Notes: generated by a model not told the origin, from the letters alone. DNA of 64,000 nt from Lingula anatina (GCA_051362555.1 CM120644.1:18870534-18934533); one strand, 5' to 3'; counted from the first letter of the stretch, positions 8,619 to 59,600 are shown. Program-made: numbers and translations.

Positions 8619-8674
<56 letters not shown>

Positions 8675-9495: not shown

Positions 9496-9526
<31 letters not shown>

Positions 9527-11216: not shown

Positions 11217-11263
<47 letters not shown>

Positions 11264-14155: not shown

Positions 14156-14190
<35 letters not shown>

Positions 14191-20100: not shown

Positions 20101-21983
20101 GTGTTATCAAAATATAAAATTCATGATAATAAAAGAGTGCTAAATAGAAAATAAGCATTATGAAAATAAAATGTTTGAAAACGAATTTCTTTGGTCTTTT
20201 ATTTTATTTCATCAGTATCCTTTCTTTTCCTAAATTAATTGATGTTTTATCTCATAATCTTCAATTCTAAAAAAGTGGCAAAGCCCAGCATTAAATATTG
20301 TATAACTGTTCATTTAATCATCTCCTCTGGTGTTATTTTGGAATTTACCTTAAATATGAAAGAATTTCATAAAAATGTGAATTGCTGCAAAGTAACGCTA
20401 TATAAAATTTGCTTTGCATTAAAAGTACAATCATTATTATATGTAGATGCATGCATGTCCTCGGTTGTAATGTGTAGTGTCTGTCCGTGTGTGTGTGTCC
20501 GTGTGTGTCCTCGGTTAGAATGTAAAATTCTTGTCAGCAAAAAATTAGTTTTTATAAAAAATTAATTTATAACATTCATACTCGAATAGATTTTACCCTA
20601 AATTGAATGTTTTTATTTTGATTTAACCAAGGAATAAGATGTCCTCGGTTGTATGGTGTTGTGCTGATGTCCTCGGTTGGTACACATAGACAAGTATGTG
20701 TGCGTGTGTGTGTGTGTGCGCGCGCGCGCGGTATGTACGTGTGTGTTCGTGTTCTCGCGCATGCGTGCATACATGTGTGCATGTGGGAGAGTATATGTGT
20801 GTATATGAAAGAAGCCTTCTTTTGGTGATGACTGTCAATCGCCTCCCAGTATTTGCACCATATTTTCGATTGCGCCTGCAATGATGTTACCAATCCGGAT
20901 ATACAACACATGGTAAAGGGAGTTTTTCTCTTTAAGAAAATCTTTTTTTTTTAGTTTATAATGTGTTTCCGAACACAAAATAGAAATGTCCGAACGAAAA
21001 ATGTATATTGATGAAAGATTAAATGTGCATTCACTTTGGTTGTAAAACAGTACCACTGGTGATATTAACAAAATTGTCTTACTTTTACGTAATCATTGAA
21101 TTGAAATTATTTTAAAACAAACATGGAAATGGTCATCTTATGCAGCATCCCATAAGCTTACTTAAGTTTTTAAATACTTGACAAATGCATCTCTTTGTTG
21201 AATTCCAGATACAGACAGCAATGGAACCACCAACAAGATATGTTGTGAAATGGGTAAAGTCCCCTCAGAGAACAGCTGTGCGGAACGAGCCGAGACGCTC
21301 TCAGAGCCGTGCAAGACTGCCTTCCTCGACTGCTGTACGGACCCCGACAAAGACAGCGACAACGACGCCGTTAAAAAGACGTGCTGTGCTATGGCCACGA
21401 ACCCATCCGACCGAAGCTGTGCTGACAGATCCGCCTCCCTGACTGAGCCGTGTAAGAGTGCCTTCCTCGGTTGCTGTACAGACGGAGCCCAGAACAGCGA
21501 AGATGTTAAAATATCATGTTGTGAGCAGGGAACAAAACCGTCGAGTCGAACCTGCGCCGAGAGAGCCACGTCCCTCTCCGAGCCTTGCAAGAGCTCCTTT
21601 CTCGGGTGTTGTACAGACGGTGGTGATAGTAACGCCTTCCATAAAGTAACCTGCTGCAAAATGGGGTCGAACCCATCCGACAAAAGCTGCGCAGACCGAT
21701 CGGCGTCCCTCATTGAGCCCTGCAAGAGTTCTTTCCTCGGCTGCTGTAAGGACGGTGATGAGGATAACGTAGCCGCCACTAAGCAGAAGTGTTGTGACAT
21801 GGCGCTGGCGCCGTCTGACGGAAGCTGCGCCGAGAGAGCGCAGTCTCTGTCAGAACCCTGTAAGAGCGCCTTCCTCGGCTGCTGCAAGGGGCCCGATTCA
21901 GGAATTTTGGGAGGTGAATATAATCTATGAATTATCGTCGGAGATTGAGGGAGAGGGCTGGTTGGCGTGCGTGTATGTGTGCA

Positions 21984-22040
<57 letters not shown>

Positions 22041-23139
22041 AAGTTTATTAAAAATAGATCTATGTCATATCCTATTTTATATTTTAGGTAATGGTACCAC
22101 CGGATCCATTATTATTAAAAATGCCACTAACAATACCACACCAGGTGAGTGTCACCCATGTTCAAGTAGAAAAAATGCATTGGCTGCCTTTATTTTTTCC
22201 TCAGGGTTACTCTGCTGTTTTAGTAATGAAGGTTTTGGGAAAAGCATGTATCTTCTGTATCCTCCTCAGGGAGGCGAGAAGTCTACAGCCAGTCTGACGC
22301 AGGTTCCAAAAAGGTTGCGATCTGTTTAAACCGCACTAAAACGCACCTGCGTAAGAACCATACTTTATAAGCAACATACCTTTCTTTACATTGAAATCAC
22401 CTTGATTTAAGCGACTGCAGGTGCATGCATCACTTTTTGCGTCACTCTGATGGACTCGCGAGCACTTTCTATGGTCTATAGATAAGTGAATAGTATTTTG
22501 AATTCAAATATATATATATATATATATTCGTATTTTTCTTGGTTCAGTGAGGAGAGCAAATAATTTTCGAGGCAATTTGACTCATTTTTTACATTAATCT
22601 TATTAAAAAATAAACTGCCATGTTGACTACGTACTTATTGTTTTGTTGAGCTGGGTTTGGTTCTTTGATTCTTACTTCAGGTTTTAACGCTCTCTTTCGG
22701 CGTACTCACTGTTTCACAGCGAGTGAAATCGCAGTGCGCGATAATTGACGTTTGTTTATATAACCTGCCAATCAAGCTGTTATTACTTGACAGCAGCTAT
22801 AAAAACTATTTTCAGAAAAAGCTGGTTGCGCTGTTAACAATGGCGGCTGCTCTCACACCTGTACGGATGCGGACGGCGGTGTCAAATGTTCCTGTTCGGC
22901 GGGGTATGTTCTGGGTAGCGACGGGAAGACTTGTGAAGGTGATTGCTTGGTTTTTTATTGTAGCAATGTATCATTCTTGGCAAAACTGGCACCTGGTCCT
23001 TCTTTTTATCTCACATTAAGTACATACCTATAATCATCAACTTTGAAATTTGTCCACAGTCTGTATATCTATTCAAAGATAAGTGTAGGAAAGTGAGTTG
23101 TAAAATTTTTGATTTTCTCTAGATTTGACTCTGTTTTAC

Positions 23140-23190
<51 letters not shown>

Positions 23191-26100
23191 GTCGTAATTA
23201 CATTAGCAGCAGCAGAAGCGGCTGTAGTATAGTAGTAGTTGGTACCCATATAGAAGAGGAGAGCAACATCAAAAAAAAAATACGGGGTGTTTCTTTAAAA
23301 ATGCTGTGCGTTTTAACAACTGCTAGAGTACGAAATATAACGATCTCATGACTTCACCGTCTTATATTATGGTTTAGACGATGACGAATGTGCGGTCAGG
23401 AACGGCGACTGTAGTCACACGTGTAAGAACAACCTGGGCGGATACAAATGTGAATGTCCGAGTGGATATGAACTCGAGGATGACCAACTCACCTGCAGGG
23501 GTAAGACTTATCACTTAAAAATTCTGGGGTAAAATTAACGGTGCTAATGCAGTTGTAGTAATGTTATAATTTTGTAATGTTTGTGCATTATACTTGATGA
23601 TTTTTTCTCTGTATCAGGGGGATGGTGCATTGTTTCATTGTCATCTTAATGAAAACTGGACTTGAATTCTTTATGATGATTTTATGTTAATTTAGTAGGA
23701 TATACGTGAATGAAATTGAAGTTGGCTGGTCGATAGGCCTATACAGAAATAAAGTTTTTCAGTTATATTTTAAACGCTTCATAACCGACTGTAATATAGC
23801 ACCCCAACTCTGCATTTTTCAAACAAATTTCGAAAGTCGTTCCAACTGTCATTGGCACAGATTTAAGGCAAAGTTAGACTTATTGAAGAATAAGAATTAG
23901 AGAAGAATTTCATCGGCTCTGTTATGTATAAGAATGAAATATTGGAGGTAAAAACTATTTCTTATTAAGCTGCTGACTGAAGAAAAATTACTTCATTCTT
24001 AGAATAAGAATTGTTTTGCAAATGGAGCAGAAAATTGTAAGGACACATTCTCAAAGAATGAATAAAATTTAATAGATAAATAAATATATAAATAAATAAA
24101 AGAAACGTCTCTCCACAGGCCCTGATCCATTGTGTTACGGAGGCCAGGTTTGGAAGACGTGTGGCAGCGACTGCACCGCCACCTGTGAGGAACGCGACAC
24201 ACCATCGATGTGTACCTTGAACTGCGTGGCGCGGTGTGAGTGTCCGCCAGAGAAACCCTACTATCACAACTACAGATGTGTGGACGAGACGGAATGTCCC
24301 ACTCCTGGTCCTATCACTAATGACACCACGGGTAAATTTGAAAAATTCACCAATTGACCCCGCTAATTTCTTTTTTCGCGAACAATGGTCCTATTATGCA
24401 TGGAAGCTAACGCGATGGTAGTCAAAAGTCGTGAAATTACGTCTTATTCTAAAACAACAGTATACGCGTTAAAATGCGCAGTCATGTACATTCTCCCAGG
24501 ACTACAGATTGATTTTCGATGAATATTCACGGATATTGAATTTTGGAGAATCACGTGACTGGGTTGATGTTTTCTCGACCCGTTTCTCAGGCCGCATTCA
24601 GAACAGTGGACTCACTGGTCCGCGGGACAAATATGGCGACCCACTAAAAAGTTTTCCGTCTAAATCGCTAACAGACGCTGAATAGATTCCCTGTGGGGAA
24701 GTATTCAAGTGGGTCGGCCATATTTGACCCTCGGACTAGTTAGTCCACTGTTCTGAATGCGACCTTGAACCGATGCGCCACTAACAATCTCCTTGTTGTT
24801 TACTTCGATATACTGTATATAAAAGTGGCGGTTAATTTCGGATTAGGTTTAATGATGACAGTATCTCCCAGATGCGACTTCATTGGACCTCTTTTCAACA
24901 TAGCGTTTTATTATTACATGTACTCTATTTAATACTTTCTGTAGAATGCTTCATGTCAGGATTTATCATTATTTTTCTGACAATTCTTTGCAATCGTTGT
25001 TACTTTAAAATTGTACTATTGTGAATTATTTTATTCCATTAAATCAAAATTGTCTATCTATTTTTATGCAGGACCGATTCCTACATTGAGTAAGTACTGA
25101 TCAAACATCGTTGATACATTTGTAACAGCAAACTGTTGATTTCTTATATAAAGTGGTATTTTAATGGTGTCTTTTGATAAATATAAAATTGGACACGAGA
25201 AGAAATTCACAATTTTGTTATGTAAATGTAAACTAAGTGATTATTTTCAACGTCATAATTTATGCCAATATTAATGTCTGATTTTTGTAGCATATAAAAA
25301 CTTGGATATACTGTACGTAGATGGAAATGCGGATACCTGTTACTTTATGTGTAATAAGTTTAACTGTTCAGGTTAAATACAATTTTGACGTGAACTTAAT
25401 GCCATCAAAAATATATAATTGACAGAGTGTCCGAAAGAGCCAGACCCTAGAGAATACCTCGGCACCAAACAACGCGCGTGTACGGCAGACATGTACTGCG
25501 GTGTTAAAGAGAAGTGCTGTCGTTCTAAAGTCCTTGGATGTGTGTGCTTCCCGGGGACATATGACGATGTTCCCGGACGCATGGAGAATAGGACCGAGCA
25601 AGTACCAGGTAAAATCACATTCCCGTCCTTTTCCCACTGCTACGTCATCCCACAGCCCATATCCTACGTCATCCCACAGCCCATCTCCCACGTCATCCCT
25701 CAGCCCATATCCCAGATTATCTCCTCATCCTCACGCCATCCCTTAGTCCAGCTCCAAGTCATCCTAGAAGTGGTTGCCAATATTGCAGCCTTCCAAATAA
25801 GTACATTAAAATATACAGTGAGTCAATGAAATAAAAGAACAATGGAAAGAAATACTCTATTAGAGTGCTCGTTTATGATCAGATTTGGCCACCTGGTCTT
25901 CTTTGTTCCAACTCTCTATCCCACCAGAAAACACACATCACTGGAGAACAGATAAAGTATTGCAGCTGAACAATTAAGCCCGACTTCCAATTCTTTCTCT
26001 ACACCGCTCTTAAACTCTGGTTTTATTTTCACATATAAGGGTTTGTATCAAAATATAGTGATGATAAAAAGTTAAGTGTTTCTAATTTGTTTCCTTGCTG

Positions 26101-27037: not shown

Positions 27038-29633
27038 TCAAATGCAACTGGTCTGGCATCTCCTAACATTAGCGCACGCTTTCACGTCCGTGTACTGCCA
27101 GTCATCGCACTCGGAGGCGTCAGCCCAGGACGGGTTGGGACAGTATCTCTCTCGGCGGACCGTACACCCGAGTTCTTGAAACGTGCACTGCACCTTCGGG
27201 GTACACGAGCCTCTACGGGGAGAGTTTCTGGAGGAGCCGGGTGTCTTGCGTGGAAGTGGGTCGGATTTGGGGATCTTTGGAAGAGGGTTTACTGGACGCC
27301 TGTCAGGGACACCACCGAAAGCACTGACATCTGTACCCTCCTTAGGTGCGTCAACGTTAAGCACTCCAGCATCGGATTTTCCGCCATCAGGGGCATACGG
27401 GTCAGGGAGACCTGGCACAGGGTCGTCATGGCCTCCCAGTAACACGGGACCGTCGGGTAAAACACCACCAAAACTTCCTACGTCTGTTTCTCCTTGTTTG
27501 GCTCTACCAGATCCTTGTGGTAAAGTACCACCTAGAACCCCAACGTCTCCACCGCCATTCGCTTTCTGTCTCCGTCTTGACGCCATACGACCGCGTACAT
27601 TTTTCAGAGTTTTCTTCACGTGTCTCCTGAACGCGTCGAACAGCCCAAAACCACCGGAGGTACCGCTTTCATCCGTCCCTGAAAATGTACCGGCTACTGG
27701 AATTGTCTTGTCTGGTAAAACGTCTGGTAAAGCGCCACCTACCGACAGGACTCCGACGTCAGAACCTTTTGGTTGGGTATTTTGGAAGGCACCCAGCGCA
27801 GCACGAATGCCTGCAAATCTCTGGTTGGCGTAAGCCATGAAGTCGTCAAAGATACCTCTTTTACGTCTGCTGTTGTGGTGAGTTGATGCTGAAATTGGGC
27901 AGAAAAAATATTAAAATAGAAAAACTTGTGGGTCAGAAGCAGAAGCAGAGAAACAGTAGTGTCACGGCTAATGTCAGGCTAATTGACATCTGCCGTAAAG
28001 CAAGTCGAATAATTTTGCTCTATCTTTAAACTTAACAAAGTTGTTTGAGACTAAATCGTTTCATGACTGGAGATGTTAATCTATAAATTTTCAAAAACCG
28101 CACTTTAGCTTGTGGACGTGGAAAGATGGAGAAGGGTACCAAAAATGTCAAAATTCAAATTTTCTAAAATAATTTCATTATATCAAGTCACTCACTCGGG
28201 TTATCATCCTTCGACATCAGCTGTAGGTATTGCAACTTGAGACCAGAGCAAAATTCCAAAATGGCCTCGCTCAGCACGGATGTGTCGACCGGAACATTCA
28301 GCGCCTGGTAGTACTGGTTCTCCACTTTACCAATCCTCAGTGCTGTGTTCTGGAAAGGTGTATATAAACGGGCTCTTAGAAGTCATCAAACACACATTAA
28401 CTCTATCAATGATTTTTCCTATCTTTTTCTCAAAAACAGTTTTGACTTTCAAGTAATTCTACGATAATAGATAAATAAAATTACATGATTGAATGAATGG
28501 AATGCAAAAAGTATCAAAATGACTTACAAAATTAATAACACAAAAATTGCATGTAAAACAAGTTAGATATAAAGTAACATATATGTTTTACCGCCTATAA
28601 ACTGCCTTTACCTTCTCTGTTTCATAACTTTTCTGCACGCCATCTATTTCCTCTTCTGTCATGGAGGGCTGCATGTCCCGGATGTAGCAGGTCATGTCGT
28701 CCATCAGTCTGAGGACGACTTTTCTCTAGATTTTGAAATAATTAAGAAATAATTAGAGAATCTATTGCGGATCTGGGAATGGGGATACACAGCTAGCACG
28801 TGCTTTGTTACGTTCAGCTCTGGAGGTATACCTTCTCCCTCTTAAAATTTTAATTAATCAAATTAATAAATCTAATTTAAATTTAAAACCCAAAAAACGC
28901 ATAACACGCGAATTGAGACAAAACGAAGGTATTTTCTCGTTTCTGTACCAAACATTCTATGGGTGAAATGTCTACTGCTTTCCTGATGTACACGTACCCT
29001 TGAAAACACCTAAATATCTTCTTAATGTTTAATGTTGTATTGTAGAAAGGTATATTATAATATTAATGTTGGTTAAAATTACAAGAAGAAGAGATAATTT
29101 TCGGAATTGCTACGAAAGACACCACCTACTGCTTTATAATCGTAGACAACAAAGGTTTCCGTCTTTTGGTCATGTGGAATATAATGAACTGCTTCCAGCG
29201 CCCTCTGGCGGTCCAGCCCCACTTCCACACTAAATACATCGTTCTGCCTATTGAAAAGGGCAGCTCGAAGCTGAAAGTAAAATTGGTATTTTTTCAGTGA
29301 CAATAATGCTTAAATCGCGACCATTTACATTTTACCTACATCTCAATATATTCTGAAAGTCATTTTCTCAAAAAAAAAAATACACTGTTAAAATCACAGT
29401 ACGTGCATTTTCCTTGTCTATTATATTTTATATTGCAATGTTACGTTCCTTTTATTTACCTTCAATACATCTTCGGTGCTTTCACCTGACAGGAAAATAA
29501 CCAAAAAAGCCACAGATGTCGCTAAGGTCGCCAGGAACAGTAAAACCACGCCTGCTATTACGTATTTACGTCCTCTGCTCTTCCCGCCGTTGTTCTTGCC
29601 GCCACCACCCTCGCCTTCTGTGTTGTATGTCAT
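27038..29633 (-). CDS. Type II membrane BRICHOS-domain precursor, ~477 aa, with furin site and Cys-rich C-terminal peptide
   Basis: Coding exons 29633-29460, 29270-29130, 28725-28612, 28349-28196, 27888-27038 (1,434 nt). TM: YVIAGVVLLFLATLATSVAFLVIFL. BRICHOS hallmarks: VVYDYK...TCYIRDM...ILEFCSG. Furin site RRKR; tail with 8 Cys. Confidence 0.85.
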
Positions 29634-30885
29634 AACGCCTAAGACCATAATAACAAAAAGCTGAATCTTAGAAAGATTGGTATTACGATATGTACAATTT
29701 ATGACGTGATTAGACACGAAAATACTCCCGTAAAATATTTGCGCCGTATACCGTATGGCTTGTTTTGAATAAATCTGCTTGGCCTTCTTACGCAATGTGC
29801 AGCAAACAGCTTTGAGTGTTTTAATCCACCGGCAGTGATTTTCATAAGTTCGTCAAGGCAAGAGAAAAGTTATTAGTTATCTTTGTACATCACACTTGGT
29901 GAATAATCGTGTTTTTTTATTCAAATGTATTTTATCTGCTATAAATCTTAATGTAGGTCTATTTAAGTCACTGCAGCACGCTATTTTTCTGCACCTCGCA
30001 CAAATTGCTTTTCTAAAGTCACGGTTTGGTGTGACTCTCCGCTGTCACGAGATGTAGGTGATTCTTACCATTAAAGTCTGAATCACTGATGAACACATCT
30101 CCTACACCTCCTACTAACTTCCAAAACCATTTGGGCTACCCGTTTACAAAACTTCAAGAATTCAATTTTCACCGTAACAGAAGTTCTCAGCCTTGCAACT
30201 TTTTCAAACATGTGACTTAAAGTAGGCCCTTAGCCTATAAATGGATTATTAAGAAATGTTAAAACTTGCGATTTGTGAGAATTTTACCAAAATGAATAAG
30301 CAGTAAAAATTCACCTAAAATTTTTATTTTTTATGAATCCTCAAAGGTGCAAAGCATGCATGTAGCAAGAACGTGACAGTTGTATGGAGTATTTTCTCAT
30401 TTTGATTTGCAAATTATTCTACAGTTTTAGCAAAGTTGTAAACGTTTATAATTGCAAATATGAAACTCTGTCCTATGACAAACTAAACTATTTGCACTGC
30501 ATTTACAACATTTTAAAAGCAGAGGTGAAACACGTTACCACACGTAAATCTGATTCTCTTTAAATGGTTCAAAATGCTTTAAAGATGCACCTCTGTTTAT
30601 AAAGAGAGAAAGTTCACAATAAAACGCCCACTCCCTGGTGCGGCACCACAAACCGCTGGTCACTCTGGGCTGGACGCTGGTAAAAAAATGGTCCCTCAAC
30701 CCCTACCCCTCTCCTCCACCTCCCCCTCCCCCTCCCCCTCTTGTCGGTAAAATCGGTCAAATCTATTCAATTACACACCTCGCACAGGCCATCCTATCTT
30801 AAAAGAAAATTTGTCTTATCATATCATCATAAAATCATAATTTAATCAATTCACACATATGATATCAGTGATATTGCTTTCTTAC

Positions 30886-37719: not shown

Positions 37720-38559
37720 TTATTTTAAGTACACGTCCCCAAGCAGGTTAATCCCCCTGTATTGCATGCAGCACTGATGGAAGTCGGTTCTGCAGGGTTC
37801 GGGAATCCTGGCAGCTCTCCGACCGCAATCTGGGCCCATATACCGCTTCCCCATCGAGCAGCACATGCTTACGGAAGCGGAGTCTGCAGGTTTCTCGGGT
37901 TTCGGAGCCACTAGCGTTTCAAGAGAAGTGAAAATAAATAAAAATGAAAAAAAATAATAATAATAAATTAGGTGAATTAATCAAATATGCTAAATGTTTT
38001 TGTTTATTTATGGATTTATCAGAGAAATAACCGTGGTTTCACTGTGAATTTTAAACTTCACAACCGAAACTGTTTCGACGGATTCTGTTCTCTTCATTAA
38101 CCACCTTTCAACTTTGTACTCTGGCCAATATAACGTATTTGATTGAGATTCTTCTTGATAGCTGACGTCACACCCTGCTCTCCATATTTTCAACACAGTG
38201 TGTCTCAGCGCATTTTTCTATCTACTGGTACCTCTCCCTAGCTAATTAATTTTTCATACAAATGCGAATGATAGTTAAGATCGTTAAAAGGATATGAATG
38301 TTGAATAAAGGAAACATTTCCCTCACTGGAGAAATGTGAAGAACAAGCTAGCTCGCTGTAAGTATAACTATTAAACACCGACTAACGGGTTTAAAAATCG
38401 TGACCATCGCTTGAGAGACGATGAAAACTGGATGCCACTGCACCATGATAATGTTCCGATTTCATCAGAGTATTAAAAATATTTCAACAACTTACTTTGC
38501 GAATCAGCATTACGGGTCGTCAGAAGCAAAAACAGAAAAATTGCAACGGCGAATCTCAT
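37720..38559 (-). CDS. Secreted single-ANATO (anaphylatoxin-like) peptide 2, 84 aa
   Basis: Exons 38559-38496 and 37910-37720: MRFAVAIFLFLLLTTRNADS|QMAPKPEKPADSASVSMCCSMGKRYMGPDCGRRAARIPEPCRTDFHQCCMQYRGINLLGDVYLK*. TATATAA at 38664-38658. A 3'-UTR intron leads to an exon starting at 37217. Confidence 0.8.
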
Positions 38560-41066
38560 CCTGGACTTTATCCGCAGGAAAAATTCAGCCTATGTATACA
38601 GCTTATTTTAACAGTCCACAGCAGGTAGTGTTACTGCAAACTTTTAAATAGTACAAGTTATATACCTGTTAATAGGACAACTTAAATGTATAAAAAAACA
38701 TGTTTTGTAACTTACAATGGAGCATAAGTCATGTCATAACATATATCAGTTAATCTTTATGGAGTAACTTCTAACCCTTTTTGCTTAGAAGTGATGATAA
38801 TACATGCAGCACAGGGGCCTATTATGACGTAATCTGGCCCTGGAAGATGTTTTTTTCTGATGTAAAGTATTCCTGTAGATATACGTATTAGATTATAATT
38901 ATACATTGCAAACGGCACTTAGCCACTGCAGTTCGATTCTTTTTGGGTAGGACATGTTCAGTGTTTCAACAATTCTAGTTCAGCTTTGTTTGATATTCAA
39001 TAAATGTCTTTTCACAAATGTTAGGTCTCAGAAGACTTGATAAGACAGGTATATGTCACTGGGTTTGAAACTGTCTAAAGCTAATATTTTCTTACGTATC
39101 TTGCAAAACTGCATATCTAAAAAAAAATCCGAACAGACTTTCTGACTTGCATCCAAATAAAAAACCCTACCAAAACACTTCGCATCACTTTGATGCCGAA
39201 TCAGATATCCTTATATGAGCGTATGTAAGTGTGCTTTCCCAGAGATTTAGATCGATCTAAAGATTAAGTTTTAGATCGACCTAACTCCCTGGGGGTTCAC
39301 GCTAAATTGCAGTCAGCCGAGCGGGCACCATAGTTAATTACCCCCTTACAGCTTTTAGTAGGCGGGACAGACGCTTAAGCCGGCCAAGCTGACAGTAATA
39401 TAGTGAGACTCCCCACAGGGATAGATCGATTTAAAAATCTATGGAAATGGGGTGTAACACAGCCGATTCCATCTGATATGAAAAAAACACAGCTTTAGTT
39501 ATTTAATGTCAGATAAACATGAAACTTTTAACCACGAGCAAGATAACAAGAATATTGAGAGCTATTTTAGTGCCATTTCCCAAACAACCGCGTACCTTTA
39601 CAGGCATTAAGCAGTTGATTAATATGTATGTACTGTACTTCGACCCCCTTCCCTTGCCTACATGTCCGATGTATACATCTATAAAAGAATTAAATAGCCC
39701 CCCCCCCTCATCCCAAGTGATACACACTATTTATCATTTCAACAATATATGATTAAAATAAGGATAACAATGTGATATGAATGATATCATCAAAGGTTTA
39801 AATGCACCTGTCTGCCTGTCGAACTGTTTATCTGTGTTGTCCCGATAATTGGTCGGTGTGGTTTTTGCTGTCATGTTTATGATGGTACTGATTGAGGATA
39901 TGAAACAGCGGCTCGGTTTGTAGGGAGAGATTAGGGACTGGATGTGGATCGACCCAACACTACGGGGACTCACGCTGAGTGCAATCAGGTTATCTGAATG
40001 ACACACCTCCTCTTGTTTACAATGTACACGTTTAATCACCAACTTTTCTGTATTCTACTTTAGATCTACCCCAGAATGTCATACAGTTAAGCTGATTGCA
40101 GTCCGCGAGAGTCCCGGGAGAGTTGGGTCGAGCCACGTAGACCGATGGTGTTTGTAGGAATGGGGCCTAATAGTTCATAGAAAACCTCTCCAGCACTGCC
40201 AAATTGGCCTATTAGCAATAATATTTTATAGCAGCCCTTCTTTTTAAGAAGATGGCAGCAATGTTTTCATTGGAAATAAATAACGTGGAAATAAATAAGA
40301 TGATAAAATATTTGGAGTTGATTAAAAGGCTACTCAGGTATGAAATAAAATACTCAGAGCGGTGTTATTTATTCAATAGTACGGTATTTTGTCCTCTCCT
40401 CCTTAAACCCATTTAAAGATCACTTTTTTGTATTATGGTTGCCTTTATCCCTTTGCTTTACCAGGCATGGACTAAAAAAAAGAATCCTTTATAAAATAAA
40501 AACAGGTTTTATTGTGGGTATGGATAAGACAGCACGAGAGGCTGAAAAGGGGACGAAGAATATAATGTATTTTTATCACAGTTAACGTGCAACAACGTGT
40601 TTTGTGCGCTTAAATAGTTTTTTCTCTGTTCATTATTCTCACTGCTTGTACTAAGTCACTTCTCAAGTACATTTAATTTACTAAACCTGGTGCGGTGTGT
40701 CATTAGTGGGTGCACTTGTTATTATCATCATTATTTTTATATAGCCATCTGAACACTACTTTCCTTCAAGGATGACAAATACTCTTTATCCTCCATGAAA
40801 CCAGTTCCTCGTCGTTTTTTTTAAATGCCATATCATATTATATTTTTCTTTTTTCCCTTTTTCTGTCATTTCTTTAAAACTCGTCTTATCGACAACACGT
40901 TTACAAAGATGTCTTGCATAGCGTATTTCCTTCATTTTCCACACACTCCGGTTTTACCATCCTATAAAGTCCAGAATATTCTCTGCATATTTCTGCAACT
41001 TCTTTTCACATCTGTCCTAATTGTCTGACAGCTACTCGTGACGCATACAAGTCAAATGACTTCCAA

Positions 41067-42098
41067 TCATAATTCCAATTTCTTTTTGGCTGCCTTTTTC
41101 ATCTTTTTAGCCGTTTTCTCAATGGTTTTGTCCACGAATTTCTCAGCGTTTTTCTTCGCCGCTTTTCCCAGCTTCTCCGCTGCTTTTTTTAAGTCCTTTC
41201 CAAGTCCTGCCTCAGCAAAGCGGTCCTCGTTCGTAGTTATCACTGTTACATTAAAGAAAAAAATGTGGCATTAATCAATCTAAGTAAATTGTTGCCTGGG
41301 TAACTGGAGAGAGAGACAGAGAGTAAATAAACGCACGACTCACGAATGAATTAGAAAGGCTGTCATGAGTGTGAGATTACGTCAGCAATAAATTAATAAT
41401 AATAATTATTATTATAATAATTGACAGCAGAGAAAATTAAACCCAATATTTTACTGAAAAAATCGTGAAAAAAAATTAAGCAATTCGTCAAAACATTTTA
41501 ATAAACGGAATATACACTATCGTATTACTAAAAGCAAACACCCAGTCATATAGCCATCCTTTCGGCTATCTGCGTAACACACTCGGCACAGTGATAGGTG
41601 GCTATACATATCATATTACTAACGCGGCCTGAATCGTATATCTTCACATGTTGATTATATTAGTACAAGCCGCTATATTGTATGAAACTAGTGAAATGGA
41701 ACGTGTCTTTGTAGTATTGGTCAGAGATTCAGCGTGTTGTTACCTATGCCAGGTACATGTACGTCACAAGGAAATCCTTCGCCACATTTTTGTTAAAGGC
41801 ACAATTTGTGGAAAGTTTATAAATGCCTTATGTTAGACGAGGAGTAAGACAGCGCAGCACTACTGCAGTATAATACATGTACCAGAACACCCTCTTATAT
41901 ATGCTACCGGTTATTAGTAAATCCCCAAATACATGTACACGTATACGATTATACTCGGCCTTACTATTAACTCTGAATGGGATTCAGACATAAAGACAGC
42001 ATGCTTTTACGCGAACAACGGGCATATCAATTAATTGTGAGTTAATGCTTACCAAGAAAGACAATAAATACACAGAATATGAACGTCTCGGTCCTCAT
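41067..42098 (-). CDS. Secreted Lys-rich amphipathic helical peptide precursor A (AMP-like), 73 aa
   Basis: Exons 42098-42053 (46 nt) and 41242-41067 (176 nt): MRTETFIFCVFIVFLVITTNEDRFAEA|GLGKDLKKAAEKLGKAAKKNAEKFVDKTIEKTAKKMKKAAKKKLEL*. Confidence 0.8.
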
Positions 42099-44031
42099 TC
42101 TTCACGCTAGGTAAATCCCGGCCTCGTTTTCGCATGCTGACGTAGCATAACCTAATTTTAAAGCGAAGAGCTAAAAATAAACCTCACCTTTGTCATAGTG
42201 GAAAGAGCACATAAAAGAGCGAGGGAGGAGGTAGGTATATTTATATAATTATACCGCAAAATAATATTTAGAAGTAGTTTTTCTTTTTATATACCAGTTT
42301 TAATTTTTTGTTTCTCACTCTTTACATATAGTATTCCCTTTTATTACGCGCTGAATTGCAACAGCAGTTTTAAAACAAAATATTCAACATAAACATTTAT
42401 TCTGCAACAAGAATTTCTGCTGTTGGAAAATGAAAGGTAGATTTCTTATCTTACATGGTCGGGTGACTTTTTATTTTATGTTACTTTTAGGATGGAGGAG
42501 ATGACAAGCCCTATGGGTACACTGCATATTTTTTTCACCTTTCAAAATAAAACCCAATGTATTTTTATTTGAGAAAAAAAGGGAAAGTTTTTCCTAAAAA
42601 TTCGGTTACATTTGTTTGGTCTAAATTATAAATAGATATGTGACGTTGGCGCGCCATGTAAACTGAGATTGAACAATTCAAAATCACTTAAAGAGACTTA
42701 CAAAAGCGAGAGGTGGGGAGGGGTTATCTTGGGAAGCTCAAATGCACATTTTTATTAGAAAAAAAAAACATCTGAAAAGAGGAGAGAGTGTATCAGCTGG
42801 ATAAAGAAAATCGACACATTTTGCACTAAGGCAAGGGGTGTTCCTGTTGAAGATCCGCTTTGATTAAAGTTTTTTTAATTTTTTACTCACATTTAAGTCT
42901 CAGTACCACTACCGTTATACAAATCAATACTAAAACCGTATCAATATGATAAACAATTTTTATTTGATTCTGCATTTACATGCTTGTCCAGTCTTTTATG
43001 TGCTTGCTACATATATATGTCGTAGGTGTATAACTATTTGTTTGTTTCATTTAACTTTTTTGATATCACTTATATTTATCACAGTGAACAGCATTCATTT
43101 ACATATATAATCATGGTTGGACTGTCATCTTTTACGGTGTTTTCACTTTGAAGATTCCGCATGATTTATGACTCTATTACTTGAAATATCAGAACTGTTT
43201 ATTCTTTGCTATCAGCCCAAATTAATGAACACGAAAAAGTTAAATCATTGCGCAACAAATCCCCAGGTTCAATAATGTTCGGGTAAGGCGGGTCTTCAAC
43301 TTCCTGTCGTGATCGAGGCGGTGCGAGAGTTAAATTGGTTTTCTTCGTCCTTGTGCTGCGTTTCCCTTTTTAACTTGTGAGGCTTAATTCTTGTAACATT
43401 CCTCTTATATTTGGAGTTTAGACACTATTTAAAAAAGGTTTTGCCACAGAGACTGGTACCCTGAGGGGGGGAGGGGGTGCTGCCATACTGGAGTTGGGTT
43501 AGGCACTGTCTTCGCTCTGTGACACCCAGGGTGTGCTGACGTTAACACGTACATGATATTCAAGGTCACCAATTACGTTTCTGTGAATCCAGCATACCCC
43601 CCCCCCTCCTCTCCCGCCTTCTTCCGGTGTTATTTTCAGTGAGAAAGATGCTCCTTGCAGACTGGTGCGAAATGTTACAATCATTACTGTTCTTTATAAA
43701 AACATCTACGGCTCCAGATCACAAGTTTCTATTATCACAAGTTTCTTTCTTTACTTGCTCTTCAGGGAAGATGGTTATATGAATTTCTTAGAATGGTCGC
43801 AACAGTCTGTGGAAGATCTCCTTTCCAGAGCCCGAGAAAATAGTGCATTTTTCTCAAGACAATTGTGTCAAAGTCCGAAAAAAGTTAAAACACGGCATCT
43901 GGCTCAAAGTGGTGATTCGAAGGTGCATAATTAAGTAACGGTAAAATCAACAGCGTTGTCAGCGTTCTTTCAAAGATTATTACGACTTTTGTCATTTAGA
44001 GTAATGAAAATGAAATTTAAAGAGAAAAAAA

Positions 44032-45107
44032 TTACAATTCTAGACTCTTCCTAATTGTCTTCTTGACTATCTTTGCCGTCATGTCGACGGTTTTATCAAT
44101 GAACTTCCCCGCATTTTTCCTCACGGTTTTCTCTAACTTTTGGAAACCTTTCTGGACCATCTTCCCCAGACCCGCCTCCACAACATGCTGTCCATTCAAA
44201 TGAAGCACTGGAACAGAAGGAAAGAAAAAATCTTATATATTTAAGGCACAAGTATATAATAGGAAATTAAATAATTAATAGAATTAAGAGAGTAATATGT
44301 AAATAACACGGGAACGCATGCGCTCACCGGCAAGCACGTGCGTGCACGTCCAAATGTACAAATACGAACTTGTGCACTGCGAAATCATAATAAAAAGGTA
44401 GATTAGGCAGACGCATGTACACTCACTACATATATACCTGTGCACTGCAATTTCCCAGTTTCTATATTTAACATAAGATATCGTCCAAAATAACAATCCA
44501 GGTTTACTGGACCTCTGCCAGACATTGTGCTTGTATGTTATGCGGTACGTTGAAACAACATGCCCCGTTAACTACATGCTCTGTTGGTAAGAAATAAAAA
44601 CGATGCCAATTTTGAAATAAAAAAATTTTGAAATAAAAGCAAGGACAAGTGTTGATTTTCCAGGTAGGTATATATTTTTATCCCCCCAACACAGCCCATT
44701 TTAGTCTGACATGACGGCATTAGTCGCTGCCAACAGCCACACAACATTCATAAGGCCTAACTGTAACAGCCTACGTAGCGCTGTCGATGCCTTTCGTGAT
44801 TCACTGCAGCTTTTATCATACTACAGCAGATTAAGTATTTTTAACATTGATATATTAGTGTTTATATCGAAACTAAACACAAGTTGGACCGTTGTCAATA
44901 ATTATTCGCGGAGAGTTCTTCCAAAACTGTATCTAGGACGGGTTATCTGATTCTCTTTAGTGGAAAACAAGTGCACCCAACGATAAAATGATTAAAGAAG
45001 CGAATGGCAAAATAACTGGCTATCGACTTATGGCATCTTATTTCAATATCGAAATACTTACGCAAAATCGTGAGTATGACACAGATGACTAGCGTCTGGA
45101 GCCGCAT
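44032..45107 (-). CDS. Secreted Lys-rich amphipathic helical peptide precursor B (AMP-like), 73 aa
   Basis: Exons 45107-45062 (46 nt) and 44207-44032 (176 nt): MRLQTLVICVILTILLLHLNGQHVVEA|GLGKMVQKGFQKLEKTVRKNAGKFIDKTVDMTAKIVKKTIRKSLEL*. Exon sizes and phase are identical to precursor A. Confidence 0.8.
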
Positions 45108-45369
45108 CTCTGTCCTCGGGAGGAAGCTCCCAGCCTCGATCTGATCTATGCTGACGTTGCATTAACTCATTGAACAGCACCTGTATCGTAGGGCTAAAGT
45201 TAAATTTAAGTATTACCGAAGACCTAAAAATACACGTAGATAAAGGTAGTTCACGTTTTTATCTACCGTGTTTTATCTGCGATAATAAAGATTTGTTGAT
45301 AAAACTGATAAATGAGTGTAAGAGACAAACGCATATCATGATCAGGACAAACTCTGAACATTATTTAAC

Positions 45370-45426
<57 letters not shown>

Positions 45427-45944
45427 AACTCTGTTGGGGGTTTGCTTTCCTTGACTGACCCGCATAACGACGGAAAATGTCGTACAATAAAGTGGCACTT
45501 GATATACTGGTATTGGATGATAACGTTGCAAGTTGCGGTGGAGATTTCTGTTAGATATTAATAAATAGATAAATAAATAAATAAATAAAAAATAAATAAG
45601 CGGGTGGAGAGGTAATGGAAAAATTATGTTAATGTAGTAAGAATTCCCTTGACTGATGTCTTATGTATGCTTCACTGATTTTATTTGTGCGTGACACTGG
45701 TGATGGAAAAAATAAGGAAATAAACTTCCCTTTAACTGTACTTAGGCCTTTGAGGGAGGGCGGTAAGTCATCAAGCCCCTCTGCTCCTACGCCTATGACC
45801 TCATTTTATTCGAATGATTATTCACATGGTTTTTGGGGAGAGAAAAATTCTGAATAAGGAATTTTATATGTTTCGAAGACCCCCCCCCCCCCCCCCTTCC
45901 CGCGAGGTCAAAAATAACTTGCTAGTTATCATTTTTGCATTTTA

Positions 45945-46884
45945 GGCCACACTTTTTTATTTTTATGGATGACATCCTCTGGGTACCCCAAAATCGGTGC
46001 GAGAGGGCAAAAAAAAAAACAGTCCAAAAAAAAAATACTGCTTAAGTAAAGGAATGCTGTCAGTACACAGCTGGAAACACAAATTTTACCACAGAAACAC
46101 GTATCAAACTAACAATATGTCTTTATCCATGCTCTCAAAATAGTAAAGCATCGTGAATACTTCGTAGAAATGTAAAAAAAAAGTCATGAAGAGATATACT
46201 TCTTATTACAAAATCTATTAAGGTTATTTCATGCATTTTGTTGGTATAGCAATCAATAAAACAAATATCAAACAAACAGTGTGTCTTTATTTGTATTCTC
46301 AGAATATTAAAGCATTTTGAACACTTCACAGAAATCTACCAAATCTATTAAAGGTCATTTCGTACGATTTTGTCTACTTCGTCTCACACGGCCAAACTGT
46401 CAGGTGGCCTGTCTGACCTTCAGCCCACCAAATACCTCGACGCCCTTGTCGACCCTTTTTTCGCTACAGAAAACCTGGTAGCCTATGTGCTGCTTTGTAC
46501 AGAATGTCACTGAAATTTTTCGGGCCATAATCGCTGGCGGCCGCCAGCCTTTCGCACAATTGTAAAAAGGTGATATCTCCATGCCCAATATCAATGGCAT
46601 ACCAATCCAAAACGACGCCACCCGTTCTCTTTATGACTTTAAGTGTCGTGTAATTTGAAAGTAAACCTAGAGATGAATTTGGCGGCAAAGCGGCCACATT
46701 TCCACGTGGCGATAATACGCATGCGCAGAAAGCTCATTTCCTGGCAAATTCAGTAACGACGTTTGCAACAACCGACTTCGTTGGGGGCTGGGGGGGGGGA
46801 TTTTTTTTTTTTTTTTTTTCGGAGAACGGGCGAAAATCGGTGCGCGCGCAGGATGTCATCCATAAAAATAAAAAAAGTGTGGCC
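45945..46884. mobile_element. Non-autonomous PIF/Harbinger-like element (TTA TSD)
   Basis: TTA|GGCCACACTTTTTTATTTTATGGATGACATCCT ... AGGATGTCATCCATAAAAATAAAAAAAGTGTGGCC|TTA. Confidence 0.75.
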
Positions 46885-47378
46885 TTACCTGCAGAATCAA
46901 CCAAATTAGTATAGGTCCAACAACAACATTGAATTAAATAAAAATTAAACATTTTAATATCCTTAATAATATACACATCAAACATGGACAAAATGATTAA
47001 TTTGTTGATGCATCAAAGAAGGGATTTCAAGCTTGCAACTGTTACATTCACCGCATTGCAGTGCGACAGGAGTGCGCTGCAGACGACACGCTACTTTCAT
47101 TTGAGTGAGGGGAGGCAGGTGTTCCCGCCAGATGTTGTATTTGCAAAAGGTTTTTTAAATATTTACTTTCTACTAGAGTGAATTCATTTTGTGACTTTAA
47201 TGTAACTACATACAGTAACATGATTCGGCATTTTGTCGTTTAAATCAGTAAAGTAGAAAATGTAGCAGGCAAGAGGCCCAACCTATCTCCCCTTGAAACC
47301 CATTTCGTTCCGTGACCTTTGTGACTTATACTCTCCGTCGACGTCAGAACGTTTACTACTGCGCACTCTGGGTATTAA

Positions 47379-49572
47379 CCCTCATCCACAAGGAAATGGA
47401 ACCCTACGTAAACCCTGAAACCGGGCCTCAGAGGCCCGGTGTACCATGAAAATCTGACTCCCATCAAAAAACATTCAAAAATCTAATTTAATTTGAGTAA
47501 ATGACTATGATCTTGTAGTATGCATAATGGAGGACACATTGGCACTTTTTGTTAGTTTGCAGGTGAAGATTTTCATGAATAATAAAAAAAAAAATTAAAG
47601 ATTTGTATTTTACCACCCAAGGACTCCCCTGTGAAAAAGCTATTTATTTGACATTTGATTACCATTTCAACATCTTTTCTTTGAGGATACTTTATGAGGA
47701 ATATATTGAAAGTACTTGAAAGTTTAATGGTTAAAAAATTGGGTGAAAAAAATAATAATAATAATAAACACATTAAAAAATAAGAAAAATTAAAGATTTA
47801 TATTCGAACACCCAATGACCCCCCTATGAAAAAGCTATTTATTTGATATTTGATGAACATTCTGACATCTTTTCTTTGAGGATACTTTATGAGGAATATA
47901 TTGAAAGTACTTGAAAGTTTGATGGTTAAAAAAATGGGTGAAAAAAATAATAAAAAACACATGAAAAATAAGAAAAATTAAAGATTTGTATTGTAACACC
48001 CAATGACTCCCCTATGAAAAGGCTATCTATTTGATATTTGATCATTCTGACATCTTTTCTTTAAGGATACTTAATGAAGAATATATTGGAAATATTTGAA
48101 AGTTTGAATGTAAAATACTGGGTATGCTATATAAGAAGAATTCAGTAAAAACGCGATGGGGCCAATTTCTTGAGTTAAAAATGTAGCATTTTGACATGGA
48201 AGTGCAAAACCTACAGGTAGTAAGATGAATACTTGTTTTAAAAATATTCACCAAAATTTTCACCACCAAACTTTCAAATAATAACAAAATGTACATCTCT
48301 GTGCAAACTATGTAGAAAACAATGGTATGGTGACTGAATATAAAATAGGTCTTTTTCTTCATGGGAATCCAAATCTCATGGGTATAAAAATGAAGATTTT
48401 CATGATTTATTTTTCATTCTTTCACTCACTATTTTATCATCAAACTTTTAAATATTTCCAATATATTTTTCATAAAGTATCCTAATAGAAAAGATGTCAG
48501 AATGATCATCAAATATCAAATAAATAGCTTTTTCATAGGGGAGTTATTGGGTGATAAAATGCACATTTTAAATTTTCTATTTTTCATGTTTTTTTTTAGT
48601 TTTTTCACCCAATAGTTTACCATCAAACTTTCAAATATTTCCAATATAATCTTCATAAAGTAAATTTAAAGGAAAGATGTAGAAATGATCATCCAATATC
48701 AAATAAATAGCTTTTTCAAAGGGGAGACAATGGGCGGTTAAGTGCACATTTTTAATTTTCATATTTTTTTTCATGGGCGGTTAAGTGCACATTTTTAATT
48801 TTCATATTTTTTTCATGAAAATATTCACCTGCAAACTTTAAAAAAAGTGCTAAAGTATCCTCCATTTTACATACTACAATATCACAGTCATATACTCAAA
48901 TAAAATAAGATTTATGAACATTTGTGGTGGGGGAGTCAAATTTTCGTGGGGAGTCAGATTTTCATCATGAAAATCTGACTGGGGGAGTCAGATTTTCATG
49001 TTACACCAGTCCCTTGCTCCCTTTACCTCCACCTGGGTGCATGAGTATACACTGTGTATGGAAAATGCAGAAAAACTTTTTTTTTCTCAAAATGGAAAGT
49101 TTCGCAAAGGTAGCGCAGTCTATCAGGTATGTAATAATGATAGATTTAAACTGATATCTGCATATCAGGTGACCGATTACTCATAAATAATAATTTCTCC
49201 AGGTCTTGAATCTTTCACAGGCAGATTTCATTGACCATACTGATAGTCATAGCACACATGATATTGCTTGTGTAAAACATTTTATAGCAAAGCTATTTGA
49301 GGTAACATGGACTTATTTATCCCATGTGGAAGTAAAATTATCAAGGGACCGGGCCTCAGAGGCCCGGTTTCCAGGAAATGGGACTAACTTTTGGAAAAGT
49401 TAATTTCTACATATGTTGAAAATTATTTCAAAACTAATTATTTATCCACTGATGGGGTATAAGTTGCTTGAGGATTACATGAAAGGAACAGGCTCAAAAC
49501 CTCATGCAAACGAAGAGAGAGCAAAAGATACATGGGTCCGGGCCTGCGAGGCCCCTGAAAGGTGATTGAGGG
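47379..49572. mobile_element. Non-autonomous piggyBac-like element (TTAA TSD) containing a foldback element at ~47438-49007
   Basis: TTAA|CCCTCATCCAC ... GTGATTGAGGG|TTAA; repeated CCGGGCCTCAGAGGCCCGG palindrome. Inner element: GGTGTACCATGAAAATCTGACTCCC ... GGGAGTCAGATTTTCATGTTACACC, with ~600-bp inverted arms of ~190-bp subunits. Confidence 0.7.
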
Positions 49573-56949: not shown

Positions 56950-57430
56950 GTGACACATTCAAATATGTACATGTAGATGACACCACAATTCTAAGCTACG
57001 AGAATACCAAACTGCAGGACAATCTCCCTGATGCAACAACAGAACTCACTCTCTGGTCCCATGCTAATAAACTAACAATAAATACTACCAAGACCAAAGA
57101 GATCATATTTGATTTCTCCAAAAAAGGACACAAAACTACACCCTTACTAGTAGTTATAATCAAAGGATTGAGAGAGTGGGGTCTGCTGTCTTCTTATGGG
57201 TTAGGAACAGTAGTGATTTGAGCTGGGAAGGTCACATCTGTGATATGTGTAAAAAAAGCAAGTAAAAGGCTAAATAATCTTAAGCTTCTGAAAAGAGCGG
57301 GTATTCTAACCAATGAACTTGTAAGCTTTTATACATCCGTAATCAGATCTACATTAAAATATGCATGTCAGGTGTGGCACCCAGGTATTACACAACAACA
57401 AATTAATAAAATTGAATCCATCCAGATACT
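56950..57430 (+). mobile_element. 3' fragment of a second (CR1/L2-like) LINE reverse transcriptase
   Basis: KYVHVDDTT...INTTKTKEIIFDF...KKASKRLNNLKLLKRAG...YTSVIRSTLKYACQVWHPG...IESIQ, abutting the opposite-strand LINE. Confidence 0.75.
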
Positions 57431-59600
57431 AAGATATTACTAGTGCTTCTTTTAATACCCAGCATTCTTTTCAAAAAATTAGTATGTACCTTTCTTATAT
57501 CCTTTACCTTATTGAATCCCCATATTCCTGATGCATAATTTAAAATACTACCAACGTACGTATCAAATACTGCTTTTTTACCCTGTTCTGCTATATGTTT
57601 TTGGGTTTGACAAAACTTACCATTAAAATTAAAAAGTAATCCGAGATAACTAAATTGATTCACCCTTTCTAAGACAATACCGTTATATTTCCATTTCTCT
57701 TCAGCCCTTAACTTACCCCCATTTCTAAAGACCATTGTTTTTGTTTTTGCTGTATTAACCGTTAAATTCCAATTTTGTGAGTATAATTTCAAGGTATCTA
57801 AAAGTTTTTGTAGTCCTTGAGGGGTTTCCGATAAAAGTACCGTATCATCTGCATACATCAGTAAAAAAAGATTTATGTCCCGTATTTCAATACTTTCACA
57901 ATTTTCCGATAAGCAAAAAGTTTCAAAACCATTAACATACAAAGAATAAAGTAGCGGGGACATTACAAAACATGTACCTCTCCTTGTAATAGACCGGTGT
58001 GTATTTGGAAGTGTTCAGATAGCTGACCTTTAAACTTAACACAAGCCTTTACATTGCTGTAATGACTTTTTATAATTTGGAGCAATTTACCTTGGACACC
58101 GAGTTTATTTAATTTCTTCCATAAACTTGGCCTATCGATGGAATCGAAAGCGGATTTATAATCCACAAACGCACAATATAGTCGCTTCTTACTCCTTAAA
58201 GTACGATTTATCACGTACTGTAGCACAAAGATAGCATCTACGGTACTATGCCCCGCTTTAAATCCAAATTGTGCGTCGGTTGTAACACTGTTATCCTTAT
58301 CCCAAGATTCTAACCTTTTATTAAGTATGGAAGTAAACAGCTTGCCTAAATAACTAGTTATCGTAATTCCCCTATAATTACAAGGATCGTCAACATTTCC
58401 CTTTTTATGTAAAGGTATAATACAACCCTGACACCAATTCTCTGGAAAGTGCCCCGAATCTAGTACAGAATTAAACAAAGTTCTTAACGCCGGTAGTAAA
58501 ACATTTTTACAGTGTATAAAAATTTCATTTATCATACAGTCCTCGGCACAGCTCTTGTTAGCTTTTAATTTTTCAATTGCGCCAATAATCTCACCGTCAC
58601 TCACGGGACTATCTAATTCATTGAACATTGTCTCGGTGTATAAGCCTACATTGGGGTCTACTTCGCGTATGTCACAATCTATTCCACCAACACAGTATCT
58701 CTTAACATGCTACATGTACTACATGTAAATTCATCTTCCCGATTGTTTAGTTCTACGGGGTCACTTATCTGAGCATCCATTGTATTACACAAACTGTCTA
58801 TTCGATTCGCTAATGCATCATTTATCGACTTTGCATTATTTTCTATCCATCTAACCGAAACACTAGTTCTAAGTTCCATGCCTGTCTTACGTTCATCATA
58901 ATCTAAAAGCGCATTTTGTTTTAAAGACCCACAAAGCAGGACAAACGTGATTGGTGCATGATCTATTTGGTGATGATATATTTGCTATAAGACTCTTCTA
59001 AAGCTTGAAATAAATCAACATCATTCGTTTTATAAAATATACTATTTTCTGGCGGAAAGTAACATACTGCTATTAAGATTGGTTTCGAAGGTATAAATGT
59101 ACTGCGTATGGAATCTATTCTTATCCATATAATACTATCGTAAATATCACTTACTATATGTACATATTTTCTAATTTTAGTTTTACAGAGGATGGCTATT
59201 CCACCACCACGTAGATTCTTTCTTCGATACAAATGGCAATCATATCCCGCCAAAACAATTGGCATATCATTGCTCAGCCAACATTCGGTTAGAAAAATCA
59301 TATCATGCCCATTTATAATTTCTAAAAAATCAATATCAAGTATCTTGCAATTAAACCCTTTTCCAACATTCCAGGAAATGAAACTTAGCTCCGAAACTTC
59401 ACCTTTTTTTTACCGAAGCTGAGCATTTATCTATGGTGGGCGAGGTTTCTACCTCCTCGCGTGCGTTATCTGTGTTAAACTGATTGTAGTCCAAAACTTG
59501 GCCGAAGGGCTGCCTGTCCTAGCGATTATAGACTAGTGGTCTCTTGTTTGGACTATTTACCAAGTCAATAGGTTTTCACAGATTTCCTTAACAAATAAAG
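57430..59600 (-). mobile_element. Decayed non-LTR retrotransposon (APE endonuclease + reverse transcriptase), frameshifted and internally deleted
   Basis: APE motifs SWNV and IFLTECWL; RT motifs NYRGITI, QFGF, AFVDYKSAFDSI, GLLQGE, LMYADD, FSYLG, spread over broken ORFs. Confidence 0.9.

Follow-up and report, generated by a model that had tools for sequence, protein, structure and literature searches.

We conclude that two paralogous genes of Lingula anatina, here called A and B, are real, expressed and conserved, and that they are apparently unannotated. Each encodes a small precursor predicted to release a lysine-rich peptide of 46 residues with the pattern of a long amphipathic helix. The explanation that we find best, and hold tentatively because we put its chance a little below even, is that the two products are secreted defence peptides which coat anionic membranes; this function is predicted. 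Both genes lie in one 64,000-nt stretch of the genome assembly (GCA_051362555.1 CM120644.1:18870534-18934533), hereafter the window, and positions in Table 1 are counted from its first letter.

Gene structure, expression and conservation

The two genes are on the minus strand, and each consists of coding exons of 46 and 176 nt that together specify a 73-residue precursor. This arrangement had been proposed from the DNA in the initial annotation; its coordinates were confirmed, since both introns are spliced exactly at these positions in public RNA-seq data. We read 6–26% of each of eight (X1 to X8, with coded tissue labels) of nine available Lingula runs. Reads spanning the gene A junction were present in all eight (X1 6, X2 2, X3 6, X4 12, X5 12, X6 4, X7 12 and X8 11), and reads spanning the gene B junction in five (X3 2, X4 87, X5 204, X7 11 and X8 18). 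For gene B in X6, exon 2 was covered, with no junction among the rows listed, and X1 and X2 had nearly no coverage. On the plus strand the introns are bounded by CT..AC, which, like the orientation of mates, assigns the transcripts to the minus strand. The absence of transcripts had been named beforehand as an outcome fatal to the proposal; transcripts and spliced junctions are present for both genes.

Table 1. Positions of the features of genes A and B in the window.
Feature	Position	Strand	Description
Gene A exon 1	42053..42098	-	46 nt; ATG at 42098; predicted signal-peptide hydrophobic core; phase-1 donor
Gene A intron	41243..42052	-	810 nt, GT..AG, phase 1; RNA-seq junction 41242/42053
Gene A exon 2	41067..41242	-	176 nt including stop; RNA-seq
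Predicted mature peptide A	41070..41207	-	46 aa, net charge +11, mean hydrophobicity -0.09, C-terminus KLEL
Gene A 3' UTR	40600..41066	-	Read depth; extends at least to 40600
Gene A candidate poly(A) signals	40677, 40513, 40373		Hexamer scan
Gene B exon 1	45062..45107	-	46 nt; ATG at 45107
Gene B intron	44208..45061	-	854 nt, GT..AG, phase 1; RNA-seq
Gene B exon 2	44032..44207	-	176 nt including stop; RNA-seq
Predicted mature peptide B	44035..44172	-	46 aa, net charge +9, mean hydrophobicity +0.17, C-terminus SLEL
Gene B 3' UTR	42950..44031	-	About 1.05 kb, 3' end approximate; read depth
Gene B AATAAA	42964		Hexamer scan
KLEL codons of A	41070..41081	-	K-x-E-L type, motif resembling an ER-retrieval signal
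SLEL codons of B	44035..44046	-	Ser at -4, a weaker retrieval residue (PMC2140024)
10-nt motif, gene A	42134..42143	-	45 nt upstream of ATG; near apparent mRNA 5' end
10-nt motif, gene B	45148..45157	-	50 nt upstream of ATG; near apparent mRNA 5' end

The two genes differ in how they are expressed. Depth per Gb read ranged from 2.9 to 18 across the eight runs for gene A (6-fold) and from 0 to 135 for gene B (more than 400-fold), and three runs from a single study gave 3, 60 and 135 for gene B. Expression of A is therefore low and even, whereas that of B depends strongly on tissue or condition; a range as wide as that of B would be seen for a tissue-restricted or induced effector. Within 500 nt upstream, the longest word common to both genes is the 10-nt motif of Table 1. 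Many RNA molecules of run X5 terminate at 45131, close to the gene B copy. A shorter form of the motif occurs at two further nearby sites, so that any role for it is only a guess. The one NF-kB-like pattern scanned had no site upstream of either gene, and Rfam gave no match in 38500-47000. When A was searched against the window by tblastn, B was recovered at E 3.8e-13 and the next match only at E 2.0, which indicates that the window holds no third copy. Among the neighbours, the ORF at 27041-27910 is 94% identical to a BRICHOS-domain protein of Lingula anatina, and the neighbouring genes are of secreted matrix type (CBM14, WAP, ANATO and EGF in Pfam).

The precursors align without gaps, with 9 of 27 residues identical in the leader and 25 of 46 in the mature region; this mature identity and the net charges of +11 and +9 had been counted by hand, and recomputation returned the same values. 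Mature-region pN is 0.26, against a saturated pS of 0.95 (Fisher p 9e-11), and the bootstrapped pN/pS is 0.27 (95% 0.17–0.42). The purifying selection suggested by the initial annotation is thus upheld: silent sites are saturated and the protein has been retained. Introns and UTRs offer nothing alignable between A and B except simple repeats, so the duplication is old; length and register have nonetheless been kept. Among the variants listed (40 of 221), alleles of mature A carry four silent changes and two replacements, both toward the residue of B, alleles of mature B one silent and one conservative change, and alleles of the A leader three replacements. All listed indels fall in UTRs or outside both genes, and the listed variants leave the coding frame intact. 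The mature part is better conserved than the leader, and it has no indel.

Searches for relatives by sequence, profile, Pfam, PDB and fold agreed with the earlier statement that no direct homologue could be recognised. A word-index search of proteins of 31–100 aa gave no candidate homologue for exon 2 of B, and 15 candidates, none at E<=10, for a query built from the alignment of the two sequences. No AMP model of Pfam matched up to E 1, nor did Pfam give a hormone, LEA or apolipoprotein family, and no PDB sequence fell below E 0.08. Foldseek returned no match, and the best VIA hits (Z up to 6.0) were all generic long helices. The best ESM Atlas scores were 0.76 and 0.77; the only named neighbour of A among the matches listed was a frog AMP cluster at 0.77, a score that shuffled sequences often reach. 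Three matches at E<=0.001 came from a profile search covering 1.84 billion representatives without a length limit; they were long repetitive proteins and were judged artefacts. By sequence comparison, A and B thus appear to constitute a family of two, with no relative detected and outside each of the named families compared. As alleles differ by few residues, an annotated Lingula precursor should have matched, and the genes therefore appear unannotated in the collections searched. The collection does include a RefSeq protein of Lingula encoded in this neighbourhood, yet no annotated record of A or B was found, which makes the two genes an illustration of annotation gaps. A review describes AMP data for brachiopods and kindred phyla as very fragmentary. 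In the literature accessible to us we found no linear cationic AMP from a brachiopod, a point on which the main survey of Lingula immunity (Gerdol 2018) may bear.

Predicted precursor processing and helical geometry

Near its N-terminus each leader has a hydrophobic core, with hydropathy peaking at 3.5–3.7 over 11 residues, and it also contains the phase-1 intron. On recomputation we recovered the whole layout described in the initial annotation, namely a 27-residue leader ending in (A/V)EA and followed by GLGK, a Cys-free 46-mer and a shared LEL end. We infer that signal peptidase would cut after residue 27. The resulting 46-mers have calculated masses of 5.06 kDa (A) and 5.21 kDa (B), contain no Cys, Pro or Trp and only 0 and 2 Arg, and owe their positive charge almost entirely to Lys. 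The lack of Trp is relevant at seawater salt and counts against an antimicrobial reading. A stop codon directly follows LEL, leaving no anionic propiece. Neither precursor has a convertase-type KR or RR site or a Gly for amidation, which disfavours a neuropeptide; basic pairs comprise six KK in A and three pairs in B.

The hydrophobic moment of each peptide exceeds that of 5000 out of 5000 shuffles. The best helical angle is 97–98.5 degrees in each half, equivalent to 11 residues in three turns, and 95.5–96 degrees over the whole peptide. The hydrophobic periodicity of 3–4 residues noted earlier is thereby borne out and refined; the best-conserved face, however, is a Lys stripe and not the hydrophobic one. 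This stripe, opposite the hydrophobic face, is identical between A and B at 10 of 11 positions, compared with 6 of 13 in the hydrophobic stripe. The latter keeps its character and varies in size: A has five Ala there, and B three Ala with more Val, Phe and Ile. Of the 17 Lys of A, 10 are at least 130 degrees from the hydrophobic axis, as are 8 of the 11 of B. AlphaFold, run without an alignment, models A as one helix over residues 2–45 (pLDDT 92.9) and B as one helix over residues 3–45 (pLDDT 94.5). Peptides of the linear cationic helical kind are often unfolded until bound, and A and B, if released from the cell, may fold upon binding.

An internal duplication of 2x23 residues was considered and rejected. 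Identity at lag 23 was reached by 6/5000 and 39/5000 plain shuffles and by 573/20000 class-preserving shuffles before correction; once the choice of lag was allowed for, 25736/60000 shuffles did as well, which is not significant. Substitutions at 16–18 and 39–41 mirror each other, with p 0.065 by one null model and 0.0007 by another.

A possible defence role and the alternatives

Under the defence reading, the 73-residue precursor would enter the secretory pathway and be cut after (A/V)EA, freeing a 46-residue Lys-rich peptide. The freed peptide would fold, upon binding, into a long one-sided helix on anionic microbial membranes and so serve surface defence. The mode of action would be of the carpet type: an 11/3 helix of about 69 A would lie flat on the bilayer, with the small hydrophobic face inserting shallowly and the Lys face binding anionic head groups or LPS. 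The more hydrophobic and strongly regulated B would be lytic, and the Ala-faced A, with its low and even expression, would bind polyanions. Taken alone, we give the lytic role of B slightly better than an even chance, while a weak or non-lytic role of A as a polyanion binder, also taken alone, seems doubtful.

Both peptides were examined with a published filter for helical AMPs, which asks of an 18-mer a hydrophobicity of 0–0.6, a moment of 0.1–1.0 and a charge of +3 to +10 (PMC7387483), in our own re-implementation in HeliQuest fashion. Peptide B passed in 20 of 29 segments and A in none of 29 (hydrophobicity -0.32 to +0.01); the failure of A reflects its negative mean hydrophobicity. The antimicrobial or cytolytic function that had been proposed for both peptides fits B better than A. 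All five candidates assayed in the Ciona LCAMP study from which the filter comes were antimicrobial, and four segments that scored below -30 for aggregation were inactive or weakly active (PMC7387483). Our approximate scores are about -34 for A and about -8 for B, which places A within the range of those four segments. Both peptides are less hydrophobic than six of the seven Ciona peptides tabulated (0.27–0.62; PMC7387483). Also counted against a role in defence were a mature part better conserved than the leader, the lack of an anionic propiece, of a Pfam AMP match and of an upstream site for the one NF-kB-like pattern scanned, and the conserved E-L end, through which the peptides may be returned to the ER.

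Retention in the ER through xLEL had been named in the initial annotation as a ground for rejecting its proposal, and judged from the tail sequences it appears a live alternative. A and B could be residents of the early secretory pathway, with the KDEL receptor reading xLEL and the polycationic helix acting in the lumen of the ER or Golgi, where it would bind acidic proteins, lipids or polyanions, or be stored until release. We consider this unlikely. To our knowledge, very small and strongly basic ER residents are unusual. As sequences, both precursors offer what a client of the receptor would need, a leader and a C-terminal x-x-E-L with a permissive residue at -4, KLEL falling in the permissive class and SLEL in the weaker one. 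In a systematic reporter screen (PMC2140024), K-x-E-L directed proteins to the ER unless x was Pro, and Ser at -4 was less effective; KLEL is placed here by that general pattern, and SLEL goes unnamed in the sections consulted. A later structural study stresses acidic residues at -2 and -3 (PMC8248988). E45 is the sole Glu conserved in A and B, and a shared E-[L/F] end arose in 516/200000 column shuffles, a post hoc comparison. In A, L46 points away from the hydrophobic face (-90 to -126 degrees) and its conservation is therefore unexplained by the helix; in B it is near the edge of that face (-59 to -88 degrees). The presence of A in 8/8 runs within a 6-fold range favours residence, and the more than 400-fold variation of B speaks against it; retention suits A, with KLEL and even expression, better than B with SLEL. 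The two ideas might also be combined, in that defence peptides with a KDEL-type tail of their own would be held in the ER-Golgi loop in place of being masked by an anionic propiece, A being retained and constitutive (KLEL) and B leaky, regulated and lytic (SLEL). We regard this combination as quite improbable.

The 11/3 geometry opens another route, which we also rate as unlikely: the peptides could be secreted helices of the perilipin, synuclein or apolipoprotein type with a structural or coating function, covering lipid particles or neutralising polyanions (sulphated glycans, phosphate or apatite) in mucus, shell, chaetae or egg. An angle of 97–98.5 degrees is that of the 3-11 helix found in perilipin 4, synuclein and apolipoproteins, where hydrophobicity is likewise low and aromatics are few (PMC5889406). 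Constant length and purifying selection fit a structural role, as do the matrix-type neighbours of the two genes. Against it, droplet binding by perilipin 4 takes more than 66 aa of a repeat whose charge is about +1 per 33 residues (PMC5889406), compared with +9 to +11 in 46 residues here, and no LEA or apolipoprotein family of Pfam was matched. A text search of the supplements to two papers on the Lingula shell proteome (PMC4595640, PMC13425148) also failed to find three diagnostic 6-mers, a weak negative because unannotated genes go unmatched in proteomics and such papers may not print the sequences. A signalling or gamete-interaction ligand, in which the long basic helix would bind a receptor or the surface of egg or sperm, would explain why exact length and both termini (GLGK and LEL) are kept and why B is restricted to some samples. 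Such a ligand is very unlikely, given the lack of KR/RR processing, of amidation and of a Pfam hormone family. Gamete-recognition proteins usually evolve fast, in contrast to the pN/pS of 0.27 (0.17–0.42) found here. Finally, the transcripts may be real and the 46-mer not the working unit, the peptides being unmade or cut elsewhere, with a longer N-terminus or at KK/RK pairs. The 27/28 cleavage site is only predicted, and six KK pairs in A and three basic pairs in B would offer other sites; purifying selection across the whole 46-mer (Fisher p 9e-11), frame-preserving allelic variants and indels outside the coding sequence among those listed make this highly improbable.

Being equal in length and register yet different in hydrophobicity, A and B form a natural pair with which the question can be tested directly. 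Should B prove bactericidal at seawater salt, it would provide a new scaffold that is cheap to synthesise; if the xLEL tail works, it would represent an unusual storage route for a polycationic peptide.

Comparison with known systems

Like clients of the KDEL receptor with variant tails (PMC2140024), the precursors combine a leader with a C-terminal K-x-E-L (A) or S-x-E-L (B); they differ in having Leu at -3 and in yielding a 5-kDa polycation and not a folded chaperone or enzyme. With perilipin 4, alpha-synuclein and apolipoproteins (PMC5889406), and with group 3 LEA proteins, they share a period of 11 residues in three turns, small hydrophobic residues and a Lys-rich polar face. The 11-mer periodicity of group 3 LEA, apolipoprotein and perilipin proteins is thus present, whereas their profile homology and near-balanced charge are not: A and B are far more highly charged and far shorter, have Lys centred on the polar face, and match no Pfam model.

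Among defence peptides, Ciona LCAMPs, cecropin and dermaseptin resemble A and B in having a precursor of 50–100 aa (73 aa here), a hydrophobic leader and a cationic amphipathic helix, predicted in the case of A and B, free of Cys (0 in both mature parts). Compared with these peptides, A and B are longer (46 aa), less hydrophobic, without Trp and xLEL-ended, and no sequence similarity was detected. An anionic C-terminal propiece is found in 17 of 22 Ciona candidates and in neither A nor B, and the Ciona families have a conserved signal and a variable mature part, the opposite of what we observed (PMC7387483). The myticalins and modiocalins of mussels are, like A and B, lophotrochozoan, lineage-restricted, Cys-free, cationic, short and found by bioinformatics (PMC5577615). 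In myticalins the signal is conserved and the Arg/Pro-rich mature region hypervariable, and they have a KR site, frequent amidation and an anionic extension that houses the phase-1 intron (PMC5577615); A and B have none of these traits, with a stop after LEL, no Pro, and 0 and 2 Arg. The long-chain non-disulfide helical peptides of scorpions and spiders (parabutoporin, pandinin-1 and oxyopinin type) have a larger hydrophobic face than A and B, and the searches described above revealed no homology to them. Lingula is a filter feeder and is not known to have venom. A and B would work like linear cationic helical AMPs and are candidates for that class.

Secreted-protein genes around the peptide pair

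Exons for EGF, CBM14 and WAP domains are spread over 7861-25829 on the forward strand, so that many genes in the window are of a secreted kind, for matrix or defence. An ORF near its far end combines a signal-like stretch with a short Cys-containing segment; the Pfam search returned no match for this ORF.

Features surrounding the two peptide genes (window coordinates)
Feature	Position	Strand	Basis
EGF domain exon	7861-8208	+	Pfam
Exons for chitin-binding CBM14 domains	12158-14102	+	Pfam
Five further ANATO stretches	21202-21930	+	Pfam search
WAP domain exon	25419-25829	+	Pfam
BRICHOS-domain precursor	27038-29852	-	similarity to L. anatina LOC106155157; Pfam
Second small secreted single-ANATO gene	35137-35074 + ~34294 downward	-	Pfam ANATO E 0.0053, below cut-off
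Small secreted gene, one anaphylatoxin-like domain	38559-38496 + 37910-37720	-	Pfam ANATO E 0.014, below cut-off
Short palindromic element	39226-39460		RNA-read pile-up
Minor cassette exon within the intron of gene B	44778-44820	-	3-4 RNA reads, X4 only
Fold-back element	47420-49368		sequence repeats
Broken LINE-type retrotransposon	57403-59409	-	Pfam: endonuclease and reverse transcriptase fragments
ORF, signal-like stretch then Cys-containing segment	61174-61809	+	ORF reading

Expression of the single-ANATO genes

Among four public Lingula RNA-seq runs (X2, X6, X8 and X3), the splice junction of the anaphylatoxin-like gene was covered by 28 reads in X8 only, and reads from this gene were close to zero in the other three. 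For exon 1 of the second single-ANATO gene, expression was good in X8 and X6 but low in the other two runs, X2 and X3, a pattern that roughly resembles that of gene B, one of the two Lys-rich peptide genes.

Repeats and mobile elements

The palindromic element attracted thousands of partial-match reads on both strands in all four of these runs, a pattern typical of a high-copy MITE-like repeat present in many transcripts; an Rfam search that covered the element gave no match. In the fold-back element, tandem units of 183-195 nt make up long inverted arms, with the same 21-nt word at each end.

A BRICHOS precursor

The ORF of the BRICHOS precursor matched LOC106155157 at 94% (over the ORF searched), and its C-terminal end is a Cys-rich peptide preceded by basic sites. 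This gene is a possible second defence candidate in the window; in annelids, antimicrobial peptides are released from BRICHOS precursors.
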